Source: Candidatus Marinacidobacterium sp. (GTDB lineage: Bacteria; Acidobacteriota; Vicinamibacteria; Marinacidobacterales; Marinacidobacteraceae). Taken from it: DNA of 64,000 nucleotides. The position numbers and the translations under genes were made by a program. The notes beneath the pieces are model-generated. The model saw only the letters and a list, made by a program, of their open reading frames with translations. It had not been told where the DNA came from and did no database searches. This document shows positions 5,876-30,595 of this stretch, one piece after another. The stretch's first letter is position 1; every line of letters begins with the position of its first letter. Location of the stretch: assembly GCA_965204755.1 (NCBI GenBank), contig OZ242011.1:1632001-1696000 (forward strand). Direction: 5' to 3'.

Positions 5876-6170
5876 CTACCCCCCCAGTTGACCCCTCCGG
5901 GCAGGCCGCTACCCCCCCCCCCCCCCCCCCCCCCCCCCAGTTGAGCCATCGCAGGGGGCTACCCCCCCAGTCGAACCTTCCAAGTGGACTTCGACCCCCC
6001 CAGTCGGGCCTCCGGACGGGACTCGCCCCCCCGGTCGAGCCTCCGGGCGGAACTCGACCCCCCCAGTCGAGCCTTCCGGGGCGGAACTCGACCCCCCCAG
6101 TCGGGCCTTCCGGGCGGAACTCGACCCCCCCAGTCGGGCCTTGCGGACGAGACTCGACCCCCCAGACGAG
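5876..6170. repeat. Tandem array of 9 units of ~33 bp with core (CT/CG)ACCCCCCCAGT(T/C)G
   Basis: Cores start at 5878, 5911, 5961, 5994, 6025, 6057, 6091, 6124 and 6157. Copy 2 carries a 27-C run. Confidence 0.9.
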
Positions 6171-6189
6171 CCTTGGAGGAAAACCCGGT

Positions 6190-19038: not shown

Positions 19039-19326
19039 TTCCCGCGGGCGGCGGCGCCTCGCCGTCCGACCCCGCCGGCGCCCCCGCCGAAGGGGTGACG
19101 GTTTTCGTCGTGGCCCTTACCGAGGGTTCCCGGCGGCTTCGAAGCGCTCGACGCCGGCGATGTCGAGCGCGCCGGCCATTCCCCGGCCGGCGGAATGGAA
19201 ATCCTGCGGACTCGGCAGACGGTCTCCGGGCAACGCGCCGCCGACCCGGCTCGACTCGAGGAAGATTCGGCGACGCCCGAGGAACCGCGCCACCTGCGGC
19301 GCAAAGGAAACGATCCAATACGCGTC

Positions 19327-22302
19327 ATGAACGAGAACGACACCGCGCTCGCCCGCGGCTACCTGTCGAACGCGATCCGTTCGGCCTTCAGTAACGACAA
19401 ACGCGCCATCGCCCTGGCCAAGTGGCTCCGCCGCTACGACGACGAACTGGAAGAAGACGGAATCGCCGACCTGCGGGCGCTGTGCGAGGCGCACCAGGAA
19501 TCCGCGGAGCAGGAATCCGAGCCGAAGGACGAGCCCCCGACGACCCTCTGGCGGCCTTCCGGCCCCGAGGCGCCTCTCGGCGAGGCGGCGAGGGCCCGAC
19601 ACCTGCTGTCCCGGGCGGACGCCGCGCTTCGAGCGGAGTCCGACGGCGCGTCGACCGACGAACACTTCCGGAACAGCCCGACGGCCCGGGCGGCCTCCCT
19701 GTTCGCCTCCCGCCTCGGCCTCGGCCCGGCGGCGGCCGCGGTGCTGCACCTGGGCCACCTGTATGTCGAGTGGAGCGCGGTCGAACACCTCTACGACCAC
19801 CTCCACGAAACGCGAAAGGACATGGCGGCCACCAGCGCGACGCTCCTCGGCGTCCGCCGGCGGGAAGTCACCGACGCGTTGCTCGCGCTGCTGGAGTTCG
19901 GCTTCGGCGACCGCAGTTACTGGTACTCGGACCGCGGCCTCGGGTCGTTCGCGAACGACATCGAAGCCATCTGGCAGCCTCCGGTACGGAACGACGCGGA
20001 ATTGCTGGAGCGCCTCGTGGGGCGTCCGTCCGAGCCTTCCCTCGATCTCGACGACTTCCCCCACCTGGACGCGCGGGACGACGCGGTCCGCCTCCTCGCC
20101 GGCGCGCTGCGGCAGTCCACGCCGGGCGTGAACATCCTGCTCCACGGACGCGCCGGGACCGGCAAGACCGAGTTCGCCAAGACGCTGGCCGCCGCGGCGG
20201 GAGGCCGCCTCTATTCCACCGGCGAGCCGGAGGCCGAAGGCGAATCCCGAGGCGGCAACCCGGGCATCGACCGGCGCAACGATCTCCGCCGGGCCGACCG
20301 CCTGCTCTGGACCGAAGGCGACGCCGTCCTCCTCTGCGACGAACTCGACGAGGTCTTCGACGCCGGCGAAAAGGGTTCCCGCGTGTCGCGGCTCCGCCTG
20401 CTGGAAGACAACCGCACGCCGACCATCTACACCGCGAACCGGATCGGCGACCTCGACGAAGCGGTCCTCCGCCGCTTCATGCTGATCGCGCGCTTCACCG
20501 CGCTTTCGCCCGGCCGCCGGACGGACATGAACCGCCGGATCCTGGCGGGCGCCGACCTTCCGAAAGTCGCCGACGCCGATGCGCTGGCGGCGCGCCTGTC
20601 CGACGAACTCGAAGCCGCGCCCGGAGTGCTGGCGCAGGCGATCCGGGTCACCGGCCTCACCGGGGGCGGGGACGACGAACTCTTCCGCCACGCCGAACGC
20701 ATCGAGCGCGCGATCTCCCGCAACCGGGCCCGCCCGCGGCTCGGCCCGCCGGTCGGGGCGAAACACCCGTGGTCGGCCTTCGCCCACCTCGGCAAGCACG
20801 CCCGGGATGTGCGCGACTCGCTGGCGGCCGCGGTCTTCGGCGGTGAAGACGGCGCCGGTTCCGGCGCCCGGGCGGAGCGCCGAACGGGCGTCAACCTGCT
20901 CTTCTACGGGCCTCCCGGCACCGGCAAGACCGAATTCGCGCGGACGCTCTGCGCCGAGATCGGCGCGCGGCTCTATTCCGTCGGCGAAAAGGAGTTCGGC
21001 CCCGACGCCCGCGCCGCCGCGGATCGCTTCGACAGTCTGGAGTACGCGCTCGAAGCGCTCGCCGACGAGCCGGGAACCGCGCTCCTCTTCGACGAGATGG
21101 AGGACCTGCCCGCGCTCATGCCCAAGCAGTGGCTGAACGGCGTGCTCGAAGCGAACCCGGTCCCCATCCTCTGGGCGGCCAACTCCACCGACTACTACCG
21201 GGAGGTCGAGCCGTTCTTCCTCGACCGGATGCTGCACGCCCTCGAGTTCCGCGCGGTTCCCGCCGTCCGGCGGAAGAAGATCTACGACCGCATCCTTTCG
21301 CGGCGCGGTCTCGCCGAGGAAGCGTCCGCGCAACTGGCCGGCGAGTTCGCCCGGATGCCCGATGTGACGCCGCGCCAGGTGACGCTCGCGTCCTCGTGGG
21401 CCGCGGTCCGCGACGGCGACGCCGACGGGATCCGTCGAAACCTCGCCCGGAAGCGCCGCCTCCGCCGCGGCGCCGCTCCGGCCGCGCCGCCTTCGCCGTC
21501 CCGCTACGACGCGAAACTCCTGCGCGCCGACTGCGACCTGGTGGAACTCGCCGACCGGATCGTGGCCGGCGGCCCCCGGCGCATGGGTCTGCTGTTCTCC
21601 GGGCCTCCCGGCGCCGGCAAGACCGCTTTCGTCCGCCACCTCGCGGAGCGCTGGGAGCGCGAGACGCTTTCCCGCCGCGCCTCCGACCTGCTCGGCCGGT
21701 ATGTCGGCGACAACGAGCGCAACCTCGCCCGCGCCTTCGAGGAAGCCCGCGACCTCGACGCGATCCTGGTGCTGGACGAGGCGGACTCCCTGCTCGCCGA
21801 CCGCCGGGGCGCCGACACGCACTGGCAGGTCGGACTGGTGAACGAACTCCTGAGCCAGATGGAGTCGCATCCGCTCCCCTTCGCCTGCACCACGAACCTC
21901 TCGGACGCGCTCGATCCGGCGTCGCTGCGGCGCTTCCTGTTCCGCGCGAAGTTCCGCTTCCTCGACGGCCCGCGCATCGCCCGCGCCTTCCGCCTGTTCT
22001 TCGACGCCGACGCTTCCCCCGAGGTGCGCGGCCTCCCCGGTCTCACCCCGGCGGACTTCGCGCTCGTCCGCGAACGCGCCGCGGTGCTGGACTTCCTCGA
22101 CGACGCCGACCGCATCACCGAGGAACTGCGCAAGGAGTCCGCCGTCAAGGAGCCCCGCCTCCCCCGCGCCGTCGGTTTCGCTCCGGTCGGCGACGGGAAG
22201 GACGCCGACCGCCCCGCCGCGCCCCGGACCGCGCCCCGGCCCGCGCCGCCGGCGCCGAGTCCCTGCCGGAAACGCGAACGCTCCCCCCGGAGTCCGCGAT
22301 GA
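19327..22302 (+). CDS. AAA+ ATPase with three tandem AAA modules
   Basis: Walker A: GRAGTGKT, GPPGTGKT, GPPGAGKT. Walker B: LLCDE, LLFDE, LVLDE. SRH: LDEAVLRRF and LDPASLRRF. Start inferred. Confidence 0.88.
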   Translation: MNENDTALARGYLSNAIRSAFSNDKRAIALAKWLRRYDDELEEDGIADLRALCEAHQESAEQESEPKDEPPTTLWRPSGPEAPLGEAARARHLLSRADAALRAESDGASTDEHFRNSPTARAASLFASRLGLGPAAAAVLHLGHLYVEWSAVEHLYDHLHETRKDMAATSATLLGVRRREVTDALLALLEFGFGDRSYWYSDRGLGSFANDIEAIWQPPVRNDAELLERLVGRPSEPSLDLDDFPHLDARDDAVRLLAGALRQSTPGVNILLHGRAGTGKTEFAKTLAAAAGGRLYSTGEPEAEGESRGGNPGIDRRNDLRRADRLLWTEGDAVLLCDELDEVFDAGEKGSRVSRLRLLEDNRTPTIYTANRIGDLDEAVLRRFMLIARFTALSPGRRTDMNRRILAGADLPKVADADALAARLSDELEAAPGVLAQAIRVTGLTGGGDDELFRHAERIERAISRNRARPRLGPPVGAKHPWSAFAHLGKHARDVRDSLAAAVFGGEDGAGSGARAERRTGVNLLFYGPPGTGKTEFARTLCAEIGARLYSVGEKEFGPDARAAADRFDSLEYALEALADEPGTALLFDEMEDLPALMPKQWLNGVLEANPVPILWAANSTDYYREVEPFFLDRMLHALEFRAVPAVRRKKIYDRILSRRGLAEEASAQLAGEFARMPDVTPRQVTLASSWAAVRDGDADGIRRNLARKRRLRRGAAPAAPPSPSRYDAKLLRADCDLVELADRIVAGGPRRMGLLFSGPPGAGKTAFVRHLAERWERETLSRRASDLLGRYVGDNERNLARAFEEARDLDAILVLDEADSLLADRRGADTHWQVGLVNELLSQMESHPLPFACTTNLSDALDPASLRRFLFRAKFRFLDGPRIARAFRLFFDADASPEVRGLPGLTPADFALVRERAAVLDFLDDADRITEELRKESAVKEPRLPRAVGFAPVGDGKDADRPAAPRTAPRPAPPAPSPCRKRERSPRSPR

Positions 22303-25300
22303 GGGTTCCCGACGGGTTGCTGGAGTCCGTCGTCGGTCTCGCCGCCGCGAGCGCCGGGAAGACCGGGCTACGCGCCGCCGTAAGCCGCGCGGCGATCGCC
22401 GGCCTGACCGCGGTCGGCCTTCCGTCGCGCCTGAGGGACCGGTACGGGGATACCGCGCTGTACCGCGCGGTCGATGCGAACCGGTCCCCGGAGACGCTGT
22501 CGGCGTTGCTCGCGGCCGGAGTGCCGGCGAACGCGCCCGAGGGGAGACGGGAAACGCCGCTGCATCGCGCGGCCAAGGACAACGCCGGGCCCGCCGTATT
22601 CGAAGTCCTGCTCCGGGCCGGAGCGGAGGTCGGCGCGACGGAGTGGGGCTCCGTGACGCCCCTCCACGACGCGGCGGCCCACTGTTCGGATCCGGCCGTC
22701 ATCGGGATCCTGCTGGCGGCGGGCGCGAAGGTCGATGCGAAGAGCCAGGAAGGGTTTCCGCTGCATCGGGCTGCCGGGAAGAACCCGAATCCCGCCGTCG
22801 TCGAGGCGCTGCTCGCCGCGGGTGCGGAGGTCAACGCGAAAAGTTGGAGGGAGAGGCCCCTGCATCGGGCAGCGGCGGACAACCCGAATCCCGCCGTCGT
22901 CGAGGCGCTGCTCGCCGCGGGTGCGGAGGTCAACGCGAAGAGTCGGAGGGGGACGCCTCTGCATCGGGCGGCGGCGGACAACCCGAATCCCGCCGTCATC
23001 GAGACGCTGCTCGCCGCCGGCGCGGAGGTCAACGCCACGCGCCGGGGAGAGACGCCTCTGCATCGGGCGGCCGCGCACAACCCGAATGCCGAGGTGATCG
23101 AAGTCCTCCTGGCGGCGGGAGCCGATACCGGCGCCCGCAGTGAGTACGGCCGAAACACGCCGCTCCATGAAGCCGCCGTCCACGGTCAGGACCTCGCCGT
23201 CATCGAGGCCCTCGTCGCCGGCGGCGCCGACCTCGACGCGACCGACGGTTTCGGACAGACGCCCCTGCACCGCTCCGCGTCGAGCGGTTCGCCGGAGGTG
23301 ATCGAGGCGCTCGTCGCCGCCGGCGCCGCCGTCGACTCCCGCGACCGCCTGGGGTGGACGCCGCTGCACACCGCGGCCTACGACAACTTCAACGCCGGAG
23401 TCGCGGAGATCCTCCTCAAGGCCGGCAGCGATCCGGAGGCCGGGGACCGGCGCGGCAGAACCCCGCTTCACCTGGCGGCCATGATCCGCCGTCCGCCGGC
23501 CTTGCCCTGCGCCCAAAGCGTGATACCCCGTCGCAAGGCGGTGAAGAACGCCCTCCTGGCCGCCGGCGCGGACACCGACGCGCGGGACAACGCCGACCGG
23601 CGCCCGTTCGACCGGAAGTCCGTAGAGCAGGAGATCCACCCCCCACGCGGGGAACGCGCGGACCGGACGCTGGTCGTCGGCGAATCGCAGGTCGCGGCGA
23701 TCGCGTTCGACGCTCCGGTCCGCGTGGAAGTGACGAACATCTCCGGATCCGTCGCCGTCGAGCCGTACCGCCGCCGCGGCGTCTTCCGCATCGTCGGCCG
23801 GAAACCCGGGCGCTCGGTCGTTCACTTCTTTCGAGGGGGCTGCTGGGGATCCGGCGAGTCGGCGGATGAGCCGGGCTCCCTGAGCGGTATCCGGCATACC
23901 CTCGGCAGTCGCTTCGGGCGGCGGCCGCGGTACGCGTTCACCTTGTCCTTCGAGGTGGTCTCGCCGCTCCTCGCGGCCGCCCGGAGGGATCCGAACCCGG
24001 AGGTCATCGCCGGACTGGTGGCCGCCGGGGAAGATCTGCGCGCATCCGACGAGCGCGGAAGGACGCTGCTCGACCTCGCCATCTCACGCGGGGGCGGAGC
24101 GCCGGGGGCGGTGGACGCGCTGCTCGACGCCGGCGTCGACGCCACTTGGACCAAGTTCGAGAACATGCCGCTGCACCGCGCCGCCCGCTACTCCACCCGG
24201 CCGGAAATCATCCGGTCACTCGTCTCCGCCGGCGCCGAAGTCGGCGCTCGCTGGCCGATCGTCAGCAAACACAACGAAACGCCGCTGCACTTCGCCGCCA
24301 GGCACAACCCGAACCCCGCGGTCATCGAGGAGTTGGCGGCGGCCGGGGCGAAGGTCGGGGCGCGCGCTCGGAACAAACGGACGCCGCTCCACCTCGCGGC
24401 GTCGCGGAACCCGAATCCGCAGGTCCTCCGGGCGCTCGCCAACCGGGGCGCGAAACTCGACGCCCGCGACCACCGGCGGCGGACGGCGCTGCGCCTCGCC
24501 GTCCTCCGCCGCGCGGAACCCGGAGTCCTCGCCGAGTTGCTGGCGGCGGGCGCCGACCCGAACGCCCGCGACGAGGACGGACGGACAGCGCTGCACCTCG
24601 CGGTTTCCCCGCCGCCGGAGGACGCGCGCTTCCCGCTGCCGGACGGCGAACGAATCCGGGAGACCGTCGGGATTCTCCTGCGCGCCGGCGCGGCCGTCGA
24701 CGCCCGGGACACGGGCGGCCGGTCGCCGCTCCACGACGCCGCGCGGGGTTCGCAGGATTCCCCGAGTTCAGCAGTCGGGATCGAGACGCTCGTGGATGCC
24801 GGCGCCGGCTTGGAGGATCGCGACCGCCACGGGCGCGCGCCGCTCCACCTGGCGGCGGCATACGGTTCGACGGCGCCCGTCGAAGCGCTCCTCCGCGCCG
24901 GCGCGGACCCGAATCGGCGCGACGACGGCGGCGAAACCGCGCTCCACGCCCTTGCCGCGCGGTGCGACGCGACGGCAGACGCCTTCGAGGCGCTCCTCGA
25001 CGCCGGCGGCCGGCGCGACCTCCGGAATCACCGGGGCGAAACCCCGGCCGAGCGCGGCGCGCTCCATCGGAACACGGCGGTCTTCGGGGCGCTTCACCCG
25101 GCGGCGGCGCTTCGAGACGCGGCGGCCGTAGAGGAGGCGAGGCGCTGGATCCGGCGCCACGCCAAACGATTGGGGCATTCTCGCGCCTTCTGCTCGAAGC
25201 GCCTCGGCGCCTGCGACGGGGTCATCCGGCCCCGACCGCTCGAAATCGTCCGAAGCGGCGAAGAGATTTCGCCCGAGGCCCGTCGACTGCTGGACGGTAT

Positions 25301-25787
25301 CGCCTGCCGCTGCGCCGGGCATCCGGCGGTGGGGAAGCGTTTCCTCAAGAAGGTCTGGATCTTCGAGCGGGTTCCTCCGCCGCCGGTCTTCCCTCCGCGC
25401 GGGCCGGCGCGAGATCCGATCTACCGGGGCGAGGAGGTCTTCTACGGACTGCGAAGCGGCCCCGCCGCGCGGCAGGCGATCCGCTGGCTCGACCGTCACG
25501 CGGAAGGTCTGCGGAGGCAGCCGTTCTTCTCGGGCCTTTCGTTCTCCGCGCGGGGGCCGGTGATGGCCCCGGACCTCTCGACCGTCGTCGAGCGTTGGGG
25601 CTTGTCCGATCCCTGGGAGGGGCTGACTTACCGGAGCCGGGAACTCCTCAAGCGTCTCCCGCGTCGGCGCGACGACCAGGTGTGGCCCCGTTTCGTGAGG
25701 ATCGCGAGGGTGTACCAGCGGACGAGCGTGGAGTTCTCCCGCAGCATGGCGGGGTCTTCGAGTCCGGATCGGGGAACGGCCCGATGA
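22299..25787 (+). CDS. Large ankyrin-repeat protein (~21 repeats) with an inserted beta domain and duplicated C-terminal domain
   Basis: Repeated TPLH.AA..N.NP.V.E.LLAAGA.VNA units. ATGA overlap with the AAA gene stop. Confidence 0.9.
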   Translation: MRVPDGLLESVVGLAAASAGKTGLRAAVSRAAIAGLTAVGLPSRLRDRYGDTALYRAVDANRSPETLSALLAAGVPANAPEGRRETPLHRAAKDNAGPAVFEVLLRAGAEVGATEWGSVTPLHDAAAHCSDPAVIGILLAAGAKVDAKSQEGFPLHRAAGKNPNPAVVEALLAAGAEVNAKSWRERPLHRAAADNPNPAVVEALLAAGAEVNAKSRRGTPLHRAAADNPNPAVIETLLAAGAEVNATRRGETPLHRAAAHNPNAEVIEVLLAAGADTGARSEYGRNTPLHEAAVHGQDLAVIEALVAGGADLDATDGFGQTPLHRSASSGSPEVIEALVAAGAAVDSRDRLGWTPLHTAAYDNFNAGVAEILLKAGSDPEAGDRRGRTPLHLAAMIRRPPALPCAQSVIPRRKAVKNALLAAGADTDARDNADRRPFDRKSVEQEIHPPRGERADRTLVVGESQVAAIAFDAPVRVEVTNISGSVAVEPYRRRGVFRIVGRKPGRSVVHFFRGGCWGSGESADEPGSLSGIRHTLGSRFGRRPRYAFTLSFEVVSPLLAAARRDPNPEVIAGLVAAGEDLRASDERGRTLLDLAISRGGGAPGAVDALLDAGVDATWTKFENMPLHRAARYSTRPEIIRSLVSAGAEVGARWPIVSKHNETPLHFAARHNPNPAVIEELAAAGAKVGARARNKRTPLHLAASRNPNPQVLRALANRGAKLDARDHRRRTALRLAVLRRAEPGVLAELLAAGADPNARDEDGRTALHLAVSPPPEDARFPLPDGERIRETVGILLRAGAAVDARDTGGRSPLHDAARGSQDSPSSAVGIETLVDAGAGLEDRDRHGRAPLHLAAAYGSTAPVEALLRAGADPNRRDDGGETALHALAARCDATADAFEALLDAGGRRDLRNHRGETPAERGALHRNTAVFGALHPAAALRDAAAVEEARRWIRRHAKRLGHSRAFCSKRLGACDGVIRPRPLEIVRSGEEISPEARRLLDGIACRCAGHPAVGKRFLKKVWIFERVPPPPVFPPRGPARDPIYRGEEVFYGLRSGPAARQAIRWLDRHAEGLRRQPFFSGLSFSARGPVMAPDLSTVVERWGLSDPWEGLTYRSRELLKRLPRRRDDQVWPRFVRIARVYQRTSVEFSRSMAGSSSPDRGTAR
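22761..23110 (+). repeat. Four 99-bp coding tandem repeats (recent ankyrin expansion)
   Basis: CTGCATCGGG recurs at 22761, 22860, 22959 and 23058 with near-identical intervening DNA. Confidence 0.9.
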
Positions 25788-27492: not shown

Positions 27493-27855
27493 ATGACTTC
27501 CGAACTCACGACCATCGGCCGCCTCCGACGATTCTTCGTCCGGATGTTCGGATTCCAGGAGGTGCTCGAACTCGTCGGCCCGCGCTGCCCTCGGTGCTAC
27601 TCGATCGATCCGGATCACGCCGCGCACGGGGATGGCGACACCGAATGGTGGAAGTGTCGGCGGTGCCGCCATCGGTTCAGCGGCCCGGTAGGCCCGTGCT
27701 GGATGGGAGAAGAAAACCTCGGCCCGCGCTGCCCCGAATGTTTCGCTGCCGATCCGTTTCACTGGGTGAACGGGACCGACTGGACTTGCGAGAAATGCGG
27801 CCACAACTGGGATGAAGGCCCGACTCTGGACGCGTTTCTCCGACCCGACAGTTGA
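27493..27855 (+). CDS. Small protein with two tandem zinc ribbons
   Basis: GPRCPRC...WKCRRC and GPRCPEC...WTCEKC. Confidence 0.7.
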   Translation: MTSELTTIGRLRRFFVRMFGFQEVLELVGPRCPRCYSIDPDHAAHGDGDTEWWKCRRCRHRFSGPVGPCWMGEENLGPRCPECFAADPFHWVNGTDWTCEKCGHNWDEGPTLDAFLRPDS

Positions 27856-27914: not shown

Positions 27915-28364
27915 CTATACACGATTCGCGCCACCTATACACAATACGGGGCAGCTATACACAATTCCCGTCAGCTATACACAATTCCCGTCAGCTATAC
28001 ACAATTCCAGTCAGCTATACACAATTCCCCTCGGCTATACACAATTCGGCGGCAGCTATACACAATTCCGCGCCGGCTATACACAATTCGCTCGCACCTA
28101 TACACAATTCCGCGTCGGCCATACCCGGTCGATCCTGTCCGTAAACGATCCGCCACTTCACCCTCAGGGCTCGTTTTCGGCCTTACGAGCCCCCGGAGGC
28201 GACATCCATGGGCGCACTTCGGTCGCCGGCGAGTACTTGCGCAGGGTTGCGCGCCGCGCCGCCGCGCCGCGCCCGACCGAACCCGGCCACCTATACACAA
28301 TTCCCGATGCAGCTATACACAATTCGCGCCGGCTATACACAATTCGGGCAGCTATACACAATTC
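27915..28364. repeat. Phased direct-repeat array, 14 x CTATACACAATT in two clusters (10 + 4)
   Basis: Copies at 27915, 27935, 27955, 27975, 27995, 28015, 28035, 28056, 28077, 28098, then 28291, 28313, 28333, 28352. Variable GC-rich spacers of 7-10 bp. Confidence 0.95.
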
Positions 28365-28471: not shown

Positions 28472-29140
28472 TCAGAGTATCGCGCCCCGGTATCCACACC
28501 CCATCCGCAACTTGAGGAGCAGTACCGTGCGACCGCCCGTGTCGACTTCCAACCCGTTCGGGTCGTCGAAGTCTTCTTCGAAGATCAAGCCGTTGGGGTC
28601 GGACAAGACCACGGCCGCATGGTCGGGGGTTCCCGCCAAGTTGGCCTGGACGAGTTCCGCCGGGTGGGTTCGATACCACGCCTCCTCGTCTTCAACGAGG
28701 AGGTTGAAGCGATTCAACCACAGGCAATCGAAGCGATACGCCGGTTCTTCGGCGCGGAAGGGAGTGAACACCAAGGCGCCGCAGGCCCCAAGGCTCCTTC
28801 GCTGGTTCCGACCCGGAGTCGTCTCGTTCACCGAGTCCAGTGCCCTTTTGAACCTGGACAACAGGTCGGGGCAGGCCCCGCCCCGTTCCTCGATTTCCGG
28901 GAAGATGCTCCACCTCTCCCGATTCTTTCCGAAGGACTTGATGTGGCGGATCGACTCGTCCCGAAAATCGTGGAGCCAGGAGCACTTCGCAGCGTCCGTC
29001 ACCGGCAGGAGGAGGCGATGCGTGTACTCCTCTCCCGTATACCGGATGATCTCGTCGGGGCGGAATCGAGGAACGAACGAAAGGCGATCGATTCCGTCGC
29101 GCCTGGGGTTGCGCGTGAAGACGGTGTCCAGGTGGATCAT
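28472..29140 (-). CDS. Hypothetical protein
   Basis: 222-aa ATG ORF with protein-like composition. No family recognised. Confidence 0.6.
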   Translation of the reverse strand: MIHLDTVFTRNPRRDGIDRLSFVPRFRPDEIIRYTGEEYTHRLLLPVTDAAKCSWLHDFRDESIRHIKSFGKNRERWSIFPEIEERGGACPDLLSRFKRALDSVNETTPGRNQRRSLGACGALVFTPFRAEEPAYRFDCLWLNRFNLLVEDEEAWYRTHPAELVQANLAGTPDHAAVVLSDPNGLIFEEDFDDPNGLEVDTGGRTVLLLKLRMGCGYRGAIL

Positions 29141-29227: not shown

Positions 29228-29304
29228 TGGTAGGCCCGACTGGACTTGAACCAGCGCCCTCCGGTTTATCAGACCGGCGATCTAACCTGCTGATCTACGG
29301 GCCT
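29228..29304 (-). tRNA. tRNA-Ile: tRNA-Ile (GAT)
   Basis: AGGCCCG TA GATC AGCAGGTTA GATC G CCGGT CT GAT AA ACCGG AGGGC GCTGG TTCAAGT CCAGT CGGGCCT A CCA forms a full cloverleaf with encoded CCA. Confidence 0.95.
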
Positions 29305-29413: not shown

Positions 29414-30595
29414 TCAGCCGGGAGGACGGAGGGGCAGGGCCGCGACGCGGGCGAGCGGGAGCGCGGTGATCCGGTCGCCCAGCGGATACTCGGCGTCCCC
29501 CGGATACACGACGAACAGGTGTTCGAGGTCGAGGTCCTTCGCCACCACATGCATGGACTTCGTGGTCTTCGGGGCGTCGGTGCACTGGAACTCGAAACCC
29601 CACCGGCGTCCGCGGCGAAACAGCAGCAGGTCGAGTTCCGCGCCGCGCTGCGTCCGGTAGTAGAACGCCCGGCGTTCGCCGTGGGCGGCCAGCGTCTGTT
29701 CGAGCGCGAACCCTTCCCAACTGGCGCCGTACCGCGGGTGGAGCGCCAGTTCCGCGAAGTCCTCGATCTCCAGCAGGTGGTGGAGGATGCCGCTGTCGCG
29801 GAAGTAAGTCTTCGGGGACTTCACCAGCCGCTTGCCCAGGTTCTCGAACCACGGCGGCAGCACCCGGAGCAGGAACGCGCCGGCGAGCAGGTCGCGGTAC
29901 CGATTCACGGCGGCCGGACGCGAGTCCACCGACCGGGCGAGTTCCGCCGCGTTCCAGGTCCGGCCGTGGTAGTGCGCCAGCATCCTCCACAGCCGCGAGA
30001 GCGCCGGCGCGGGCGGCGCGCCGGCGAGCAGCGGCAAGTCCCGCTCCACGAAGGTCGCGGTGAAGGTGTCCATCCACCGGGTCCAGGCGTCGTAGGAGTC
30101 CGCCAGGAAGGCGCGCGGGAAACCGCCCCGGAGCCAGAGACGCGTCAGCCGTTCGGGCCCCACTTCGCCGAGCGAAAGTCCACCGAGATTCACGAACAGG
30201 ATGCGTCCGGCGAGGCTCTCGGAAACCCCCCGCACGAGATCCGGCGAAGCGCTGCCGAGGACCAGGAACACCGCCCGGCGATCCGGATCGTCACAGACCG
30301 GGCGCAGCACCTCGAAGAGCGCCGGCAGCCGCTGGATCTCGTCGAGGACGACCAGCCCCTCCTGCTCTCGCAGGAGGCGGTCGGGGGTCGCGGTCAGCGC
30401 CTCGCGGTCGGCCGGACGCTCCAAGTCGAAGCGCGTCGTCGGGCCGTCCCAAGTCGCCGCGATTTCTCGCGCCAGCGTCGTCTTCCCCACCTGGCGCGCC
30501 CCGAGGAGCGCGGCCACCGGGCTCTCCGAGAGCGCCTGTCTCGTCGCGTCGAAGGGGGCCTCGCGACGGATCCGGTCGGATCGAGGTTGTTGCAT
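29414..30595 (-). CDS. AAA_14 ATPase + DUF4143 (PD-(D/E)XK-like) protein
   Basis: GARQVGKT, LDEIQ, LGSAS, ESLAGR, GGFP, KRLVKSPK.YFRDSG, ELDLL. Confidence 0.9.
   Translation of the reverse strand: MQQPRSDRIRREAPFDATRQALSESPVAALLGARQVGKTTLAREIAATWDGPTTRFDLERPADREALTATPDRLLREQEGLVVLDEIQRLPALFEVLRPVCDDPDRRAVFLVLGSASPDLVRGVSESLAGRILFVNLGGLSLGEVGPERLTRLWLRGGFPRAFLADSYDAWTRWMDTFTATFVERDLPLLAGAPPAPALSRLWRMLAHYHGRTWNAAELARSVDSRPAAVNRYRDLLAGAFLLRVLPPWFENLGKRLVKSPKTYFRDSGILHHLLEIEDFAELALHPRYGASWEGFALEQTLAAHGERRAFYYRTQRGAELDLLLFRRGRRWGFEFQCTDAPKTTKSMHVVAKDLDLEHLFVVYPGDAEYPLGDRITALPLARVAALPLRPPG

Follow-up and report, generated by a model that had tools for sequence, protein, structure and literature searches.

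Phased two-block repeat arrays on a marine acidobacterial chromosome and a candidate winged-helix protein that may dock on them

RESULTS

Two blocks of direct repeats between convergent genes

The window analyzed here is a 64,000-nucleotide stretch of a Candidatus Marinacidobacterium sp. genome that consists of one contig (3.98 Mb, 71.7% GC, 89% completeness). It contains 14 matches to the 12-mer CTATACACAATT, 12 of them exact and 2 with one mismatch, all on the plus strand between positions 27915 and 28363. Shuffling gives an expectation of 0.17 matches, none of 100 shuffles reached 14, and TRF reports the same two blocks in the window. Block 1 (27915 to 28110, plus strand) holds ten direct copies of a 13-bp core, CTATACACAATTC, at a period of 20 to 21 bp with variable GC-rich linkers; block 2 (28291 to 28364, plus strand) holds four direct copies of the core at a period of 19 to 22 bp. 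The middle segment (28111 to 28290) is GC-rich, measures 193 bp from core to core, and lacks an IHF consensus. The original prediction of separate clusters of ten and four repeats in one orientation, phased at 19 to 22 bp, is thus borne out. It had also given the core as 12 bp and nearly invariant; the invariance stands, but the length does not, because a C follows the 12-mer in all 104 genomic copies, making the core 13 bp. The two blocks are predicted to be tandem binding sites, and the middle segment is predicted to form a loop or wrap that joins them.

As originally described, the array lies between two convergent genes. On its left, a 120-amino-acid open reading frame (ORF; 27493 to 27855, plus strand) has two zinc-ribbon-like motifs, both sub-threshold matches, and 7 of its 11 listed strain differences fall at third codon positions. 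It is probably a real gene; no connection between it and the array was found. On the right, a 222-amino-acid ORF (28472 to 29140, minus strand) converges on the array; it has no Pfam or PADLOC match. A tRNA-Ile(GAT) gene (29228 to 29304, minus strand) is the only Rfam match in the window, with no CRISPR family found. The closeness of the array to this tRNA gene, part of the original description, holds here (865 bp) but not for the other eight arrays of the genome described below, which lie 5 to 140 kb from a tRNA. We therefore dropped a connection that is peculiar to the window copy. A coding role for the array was rejected as well, since the ORFs overlapping it have no Pfam match and single-base indels within it separate the strains.

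Three further features of the window are recorded here. A gene with AAA_14 and DUF4143 domains (29414 to 30595; PADLOC PDC-S01) has paralogs that recur beside several arrays and candidate tether genes. At 19195 to 25787, a gene for a 1035-amino-acid triple-AAA ATPase overlaps one for a 1162-amino-acid ankyrin-repeat protein. A 33-bp tandem repeat of 6.6 copies (5961 to 6174) comes just after a 27-base C run.

Cores are conserved between strains while linkers change

Near-identical DNA is present in marine and sponge metagenome runs. In one independent sponge metagenome (run X11), a 16.5-kb contig spans the window locus with a 60-bp (three-unit) deletion, and block 1 has seven copies in this strain. 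The existence of this contig indicates that the array is not an assembly artifact. Between 27972 and 28400, the X11 strain differs from the window by 13 substitutions; among the 11 listed, 8 lie in linkers, 3 in the middle, and none in a core. Spacer turnover differs from that of the cores, with 0 of 143 core bases changed versus 8 of 67 linker bases (p = 8e-5, or p = 0.002 if both unlisted substitutions lay in cores). The difference between the cores and the left flank, in which 14 of 512 bases are substituted, is smaller (p = 0.05). Across three runs, 0 of 25 substitution rows fall in a core, although some of the rows derive from sister-array contigs. Part of the divergence in linkers could be due to shuffling of units. 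The cores are kept while the linkers change, which argues against a neutral minisatellite.

Nine arrays of one family around the chromosome

A scan of the whole genome at one mismatch or fewer found 104 copies of the core, all inside nine loci and none elsewhere. These arrays, which we call family A (A1 to A9), lie at 358, 756, 1208, 1660 (the window array), 2045, 2895, 2971, 3119, and 3494 kb, on both chromosome arms. Every one has two blocks of 4 to 10 direct copies separated by 153 to 235 bp, for 9 to 14 repeats per array, and 13 core positions are essentially invariant. Within blocks, 81 of 86 intervals measure 19 to 22 or 29 to 32 bp, corresponding to two or three helical turns, and the linkers (0 to 28 nucleotides) contain recurrent words. 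The middles are rich in GC and show partial homology to one another (pairwise z of at most 7.3, with many pairs near zero); that of the window array is distantly homologous to those of A2, A3, and A7 (z of 5.0, 6.4, and 6.6), with z near zero against A5, A6, and A9. None of the nine contains an IHF-consensus site at one mismatch or fewer. Regular spacing of the arrays around the chromosome is not significant (p = 0.07), and their strand polarity relative to dnaA is mixed.

Family A arrays are flanked by unrelated genes, such as aroB-aroA, hisF, and one for an amidohydrolase. At all three of these junctions the congener G001 has no family A array, and G004, G013, G014, or G003 also lack one at one or more of them, indicating that family A arrays are lineage specific. 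The exact tandem core was found in none of 40 relatives and in none of the viral contigs searched; near-matches in G029 and G040 proved to be single copies within multi-copy IS-like coding sequence and were discarded. Among species genomes, a looser pattern matched at least 141 stretches that resemble oriC boxes or plasmid iterons or are satellites, with the 12-mer in none of the matches listed, and a metagenome scan returned 19 matches, mostly AT-rich and unrelated to the array. G018 carries, at two sites, a family A relative with one block (AGCTATACGCATT), for which no gene was identified. Separately, a Nitrospirales metagenome-assembled genome (L036 to L055 and others) carries multi-kilobase TATACAC satellite-like DNA with a 10-bp period, which may be host contamination.

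Such a distribution could also be produced by selfish or near-neutral repeats that expand by slippage and spread on insertion sequences, with any protein at most regulating itself and solo arrays having no function. The empty orthologous sites at three loci favor this explanation, as do the copy-number difference between strains and the homologous yet diverged middles. Further, the end of an IS3-type element lies within 8 to 285 bp of an array in six of its eight copies, facing the array with its terminus (246.0, 358.3, 755.7, 1207.9, 2895.8, and 2970.7 kb). A full copy of this element in G013 encodes HTH_Tnp_1; we take it to be IS3-type from this match together with its end sequences. Against the explanation, the core is nearly invariant in solo arrays far from the candidate gene described below, the window array keeps its cores between strains while linkers change, and the four arrays examined share no terminal inverted repeats. 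The window array itself has no IS3-type end beside it. A second repeated end-like motif, presumably IS21-like, occurs near A1, A7, and A8.

MITE or REP elements were rejected, with no common terminal arms at the four of nine arrays examined and a core that is not palindromic. The accessible part of a report on REP/BIME elements describes them as targets of insertion sequences (PMC1525189). Like these, the arrays are intergenic repeat clusters with IS elements accumulating alongside; they differ from what is described there in their non-palindromic direct repeats, nine loci, and pairing of each family with a winged-helix gene, and in having IS ends that abut arrays rather than interrupt palindromes.

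DnaA, replication origin, and CRISPR readings

The sequence CTATACACA matches the E. coli DnaA consensus TTATnCACA at eight of nine positions, and the original prediction had proposed a DnaA titration or loading site. On this reading the arrays would serve, as clusters of DnaA boxes (datA, DARS, or DBC-like), to titrate or recycle the protein. The match retains the TnCACA part, which is the portion read by the DnaA recognition helix according to the accessible text of PMC5742627. Among the matches listed, origins of Veillonella and others have such boxes at a 20- to 22-bp period, and the genome's own dnaA-dnaN boxes are degenerate, so arrays could outcompete them. Several observations weakly oppose the reading. 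The boxes of relatives between dnaA and dnaN are of the TTTTCCACA type, to which CTATACACA matches at only six of nine positions, and in this genome they drift to degenerate, CACA-less forms (1824.7 to 1825.2 kb). The dnaA gene lies at 1.823 to 1.825 Mb, and the 102 copies of CTATACACA in the genome all lie away from it. In G001 (87% complete, one contig), the DnaA recognition helix is the same, yet no core occurs at two mismatches or fewer. The invariant core is 13 bp rather than 9, the family A middles lack IHF sites, and the cores of sister families that share this layout do not resemble DnaA boxes. Compared with datA and DARS as described in the accessible part of PMC5742627, the arrays likewise have a box match and several sites away from oriC, but they have a longer invariant core, 9 to 14 copies, no IHF site in family A, and no covariation with DnaA. 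The window array is probably not a DnaA site, a role we consider quite improbable for the family, and it is not oriC. As a separate observation, a loop of DnaA domain IV is shortened by one residue in the family members aligned, whose Pfam DnaA_C scores are lower than those of sister families.

The original comparison with plasmid iterons would make the arrays extra chromosomal replication origins. The direct repeats at a two-turn period are compatible with this, as are plasmid-like 22-bp Firmicutes repeats that share part of the core (among the matches listed), an IHF-like site before block 2 in a sister family, and the weak, irregular GC skew. However, no Rep3_N match at an E value of 1 or less was found in the genome (89% complete), and no rep-like gene was recognized among the flank genes scanned. 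The window array seems to have no distinct AT-rich element; its lowest 25-bp GC is 0.44, within a range of 0.36 to 0.60 over the nine arrays and compared with 0.36 at oriC. The genome has a conventional dnaA-dnaN-gyrB locus, parAB, and one parS-like site, with a dif-like site half a genome away at 3.80 Mb. GC skew gave no usable origin signal and shows no switch at the window array. We give little credence to the iteron reading, less than to that of DnaA boxes.

Three observations concern partition elements. In the parS-like site (1,819,116), CGCG replaces the central ACGT-containing word. Two more ParB-domain genes are present, one with a ParA-like neighbor beside the 3.80-Mb dif-like site and one in a 2.67-Mb island (L371 and L372). 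Genus g2 (L299 to L302 and L306) has a conserved element at a gene end with four to six direct 21-bp repeats that contain a parS-like half, possibly iterons or a partition site.

CRISPR arrays carry unique spacers of about 25 to 45 nucleotides between repeats of 23 to 47 nucleotides. The short-spacer, CRISPR-like transcribed array suggested originally was discarded: the core is only 13 bp, the linkers are short and recurrent, and the repeat near the genome's Cas1 gene is unrelated.

A candidate cognate protein encoded beside a sister array

A gene that we call pA (2,046,014 to 2,047,135; 373 amino acids; Pfam Fic-like_C/HTH_20) lies 96 bp from array A5. BLAST identifies three paralogs in the genome, pA, pB, and pC, each next to an array of a different family. 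pB lies 104 bp from B3, one of the five two-block loci of family B (core AAAGACACAGGCT; 245.5, 588.0, 1046.7, 2291.7, and 3356.8 kb), where an AT-rich, IHF-like site immediately precedes block 2; the pB-B3 pairing is also present in G001. pC lies 78 bp from the 2588-kb array of family C, whose long GATC-containing arrays are found at 340 to 341.7, 2587.9 to 2589.9, and 2780.8 to 2782.4 kb and also at 1840 and 2162 kb; a short C array adjoins A2. By a rough estimate, the chance of each gene-array adjacency is 0.002 to 0.003. The window array is 385 kb from pA and has no pA-type gene beside it.

The structure model of pA shows amphipathic N-terminal helices (residues 17 to 149; low confidence, pLDDT 40 to 73), a disordered Pro-rich linker (150 to 282), and a confident C-terminal winged helix (291 to 369), which aligns with winged helices in a structure search (Z of about 10; root mean square deviation of 1.3 to 2.4 Å over about 60 residues). 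This winged helix is nearly invariant across eight orthologues with overall identities of 84 to 91%. In the N-terminal 140 residues of 24 homologues, 52 to 93% of windows have a hydrophobic moment above 0.4, compared with 11% on average and 46% at most in 339 background proteins; one further homologue row, with its start missing, has 16%. pA contains no hydrophobic stretch of transmembrane length and strength; its hydropathy over 19 residues peaks at 0.71. pA has no DUF536 match, and no NTPase gene was recognized beside it. The candidate binding protein and the conservation of cores over linkers together support the original suggestion of a protein-bound, centromere-like site, as far as sequence can indicate.

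Long amphipathic helices joined to a DNA-binding end would also suit a tether to storage granules instead of the cell membrane, like PhaF, PhaM, or MLDS-like proteins. Those tethers bind DNA without sequence specificity, and the PHA synthase N-terminal domain is absent from all five genomes searched, with a working control. We therefore consider a granule tether most improbable.

The main rival explanation is defense or addiction, in which the arrays would hold a membrane-active pA on intact DNA and loss or cutting of the chromosome, as by phage, would free pA to damage the membrane. A type II methyltransferase gene sits two genes away from pA, and the gene after pB resembles a cytosine methyltransferase by eye. 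Short palindromes occur within many cores, and the otherwise avoided AGCT (0.045 of expectation genome-wide) has 70 of its 332 sites in the family A arrays. The N-terminal hairpin model of pA aligns with helical hairpins of pore formers at a Z of about 11, but for long helices the tool counts only higher values as meaningful, and helices of chemoreceptors give similar scores. Also against this explanation, PADLOC gives only a weak winged-helix match for pA (and no significant match for pC), and pA lacks a membrane-spanning segment. Independently of these points, a 198-amino-acid gene without a family match (L259:7632-8225) overlaps the pA stop codon and converges on the type II methyltransferase gene, and both ACGT and AGCT occur at about 4% of expectation across the genome.

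Core class tracks the winged helix across the family

The pA protein family occurs in 22 of 28 genomes of the taxonomic family, with up to 10 matches each. It was not found in 400 genomes from elsewhere in the phylum, for each of which only 10 candidates were scored. No relatives were found in 72,556 plasmids or in the viral contigs searched. A profile search with the N-terminal region returned about 50 family-like clusters, followed by long coiled-coil or tape-measure proteins that match by composition. From among the family matches we read 62 distinct winged-helix domains; duplicates were set aside, as were two weak fragments and a pseudogene that lacks the domain. A phased array is present in the flank of 53 of these 62 genes (1.5 to 2.5 kb examined per gene; one of the 53 is three copies at a contig end), as opposed to 5 of 114 control flanks; the remaining 9 genes have none in the flank examined. 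Loci with two array types were resolved by assigning the array to the gene by proximity, and cores were sorted by eye into 18 classes.

Mapped on a tree of the winged helices (84 columns, many forks open), core class requires 18 changes, where the minimum is 17 and shuffled data average 40 (lowest, 37). Core class tracks winged-helix clade. Since a gene and its adjacent array are inherited together, this result alone cannot tell coevolution from linkage, and dispersed array copies were therefore examined. The ATGGTCA class has two blocks with a period of about 20 bp and a gap of 170 to 221 bp. At least five matches to it occur in 8 of the 28 genomes and at most one in each of the remaining 20; the helices read from 6 of these 8 array-bearing genomes include the corresponding one, and a seventh has genes beside such arrays. 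In the complete genome G006 this class occupies about eight loci, one of them adjoining its gene, as in family A, and its two-block layout with gene-side and dispersed copies is present in two genera. The TATCGACCGGA class is found in 13 of 16 genus-g2 genomes, and its gene is among those read from 6 of them; in the three g2 genomes lacking TATCGACCGGA, none of the 6, 5, and 5 paralogs read has the matching helix. Similarly, the pA recognition helix is seen in none of the 61 other domains read, matching the absence of the family A core from the relatives searched.

These comparisons also bear on the rival explanations. Many family arrays sit upstream of their gene in an operator-like position, as the selfish-repeat explanation would have it. 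However, the ATGGTCA and GCTGGGG families have the array 3' of the gene, away from the promoter, and families whose cores are unrelated share the two-block layout and the phasing. We therefore regard selfish or near-neutral repeats as unlikely. In G003, an IS3 end abuts a GCTGGGG-class array (L359). For the defense explanation, the family is patchy and multi-paralog with quick turnover, and DNA modification and restriction genes recur among the neighbors; the enrichment is modest, with PADLOC matches for 33 of 120 neighbors versus 15 of 94 evenly spaced genome samples (p = 0.05, from counts that are not independent between genomes). Defense or addiction is, in our estimate, an equally unlikely explanation.

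DISCUSSION

Array anatomy, phasing, core conservation, gene-array adjacency, and the matching of helix to core type all point to pA as the likely reader of the family A core. Judged from sequence and structure models, binding of pA to family A arrays is quite probable, and a membrane-tether role, given such binding, is reasonably so. The combined explanation, that the nine arrays are likely docking sites for pA and that its predicted amphipathic N terminus would tether these segments to the inner membrane, is evenly balanced in our estimate. In this model, the pA winged helix would bind the cores along a single face of the DNA, with each repeat taking roughly one protein, and proteins on the two blocks would bridge the middle to form a loop of about 190 bp. 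The amphipathic N terminus would grip the inner membrane, and the many tails on each array would make that binding avid. Nine chromosome segments would thereby be held at the membrane, which may help chromosome positioning or segregation, and the window array would be a remote docking site for pA made 385 kb away. Gene-plus-array cassettes are gained and lost quickly, and solo arrays spread to new intergenic sites. Against a tether, the patchy distribution of the family, the orthologous sites without arrays, and the presence of parAB would be odd for an essential segregation system.

The predicted arrangement works like several described systems. RicO of Staphylococcus aureus, in the accessible part of its report (bioRxiv 10.64898/2026.03.06.710092), combines a DNA-binding domain with an amphipathic membrane helix and bridges DNA to the membrane at nine chromosomal ricS sites. 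Likewise, pA is predicted to unite DNA-binding and amphipathic parts in one chain, and its candidate sites number nine. As described in that text, RicO has an N-terminal DNA-binding domain and a short C-terminal helix, whereas pA has the reverse order and an amphipathic part of about 135 residues; ricS is a single 18-bp non-repeat motif within about 700 kb around oriC, whereas here two-block arrays of 9 to 14 repeats lie on both arms and several paralogs have their own motifs.

Streptococcus pneumoniae RocS and pSK1 Par, in the portion of PMC11500499 available, pair a winged helix with an amphipathic helix and are proposed to position DNA at the membrane, with RocS membrane binding requiring multivalency and pSK1 Par binding specific repeats. 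pA resembles them in its predicted winged helix, its amphipathic helices, and the lack of an NTPase. According to that text, they have a MerR-type N-terminal winged helix, a coiled coil with DUF536, and a C-terminal helix; in pA, by contrast, the winged helix (Fic-like_C/HTH_20) is C-terminal, the linker is Pro-rich and disordered, and DUF536 gives no match.

StbA of plasmid R388 binds stbS, two sets of direct repeats beside its gene, as related in the accessible part of bioRxiv 10.1101/2022.04.29.490116, which also describes TubR/tubC and ParR/parC. As with stbS, the arrays are phased on one face, more repeats lie elsewhere on the replicon, and A5 lies close to pA. The stbS repeats described there are plasmid borne, with 9-bp units at an 11-bp period, and StbA has an N-terminal PadR-like domain, whereas the present arrays are chromosomal, with a 13-bp core at two or three turns and blocks about 190 bp apart. 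Unlike the TubR and ParR systems as described in that text, no gene for a partner NTPase (TubZ or ParM) was recognized beside pA, and the plasmids and viral contigs searched hold no relative. The family thus likely works like RicO, RocS, pSK1 Par, and StbA yet belongs to none of them; we do not file it as a member since the defining domain order or location of each differs here. The literature searched, with subscription journals largely outside its scope and supplements not included, holds no description of this array-protein system.

An extension of the docking model, which we hold only tentatively, is an orthogonal tether code. Each paralog would read its own core through a fast-evolving winged helix, and each core would be sown over many chromosomal sites as looping two-block arrays, so that one cell could anchor several independent sets of loci. 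Cassettes might move between genera and arrays might settle at new sites, by analogy with rapidly coevolving pairs of satellites and centromere proteins. The roughly 18 helix-to-motif pairs, 11 of them in two or more genes, form a natural, testable table and, if this reading is true, could be used as orthogonal parts for labeling or tethering DNA. If instead the defense reading is true, the double-stranded repeat arrays would form a sensor of chromosome integrity. If the docking model is true, one rule would account for several separate repeat families in the genome, and chromosome-membrane anchoring with multiple sites and multiple paralogs would occur outside the Firmicutes, the home of RicO, RocS, and Par.
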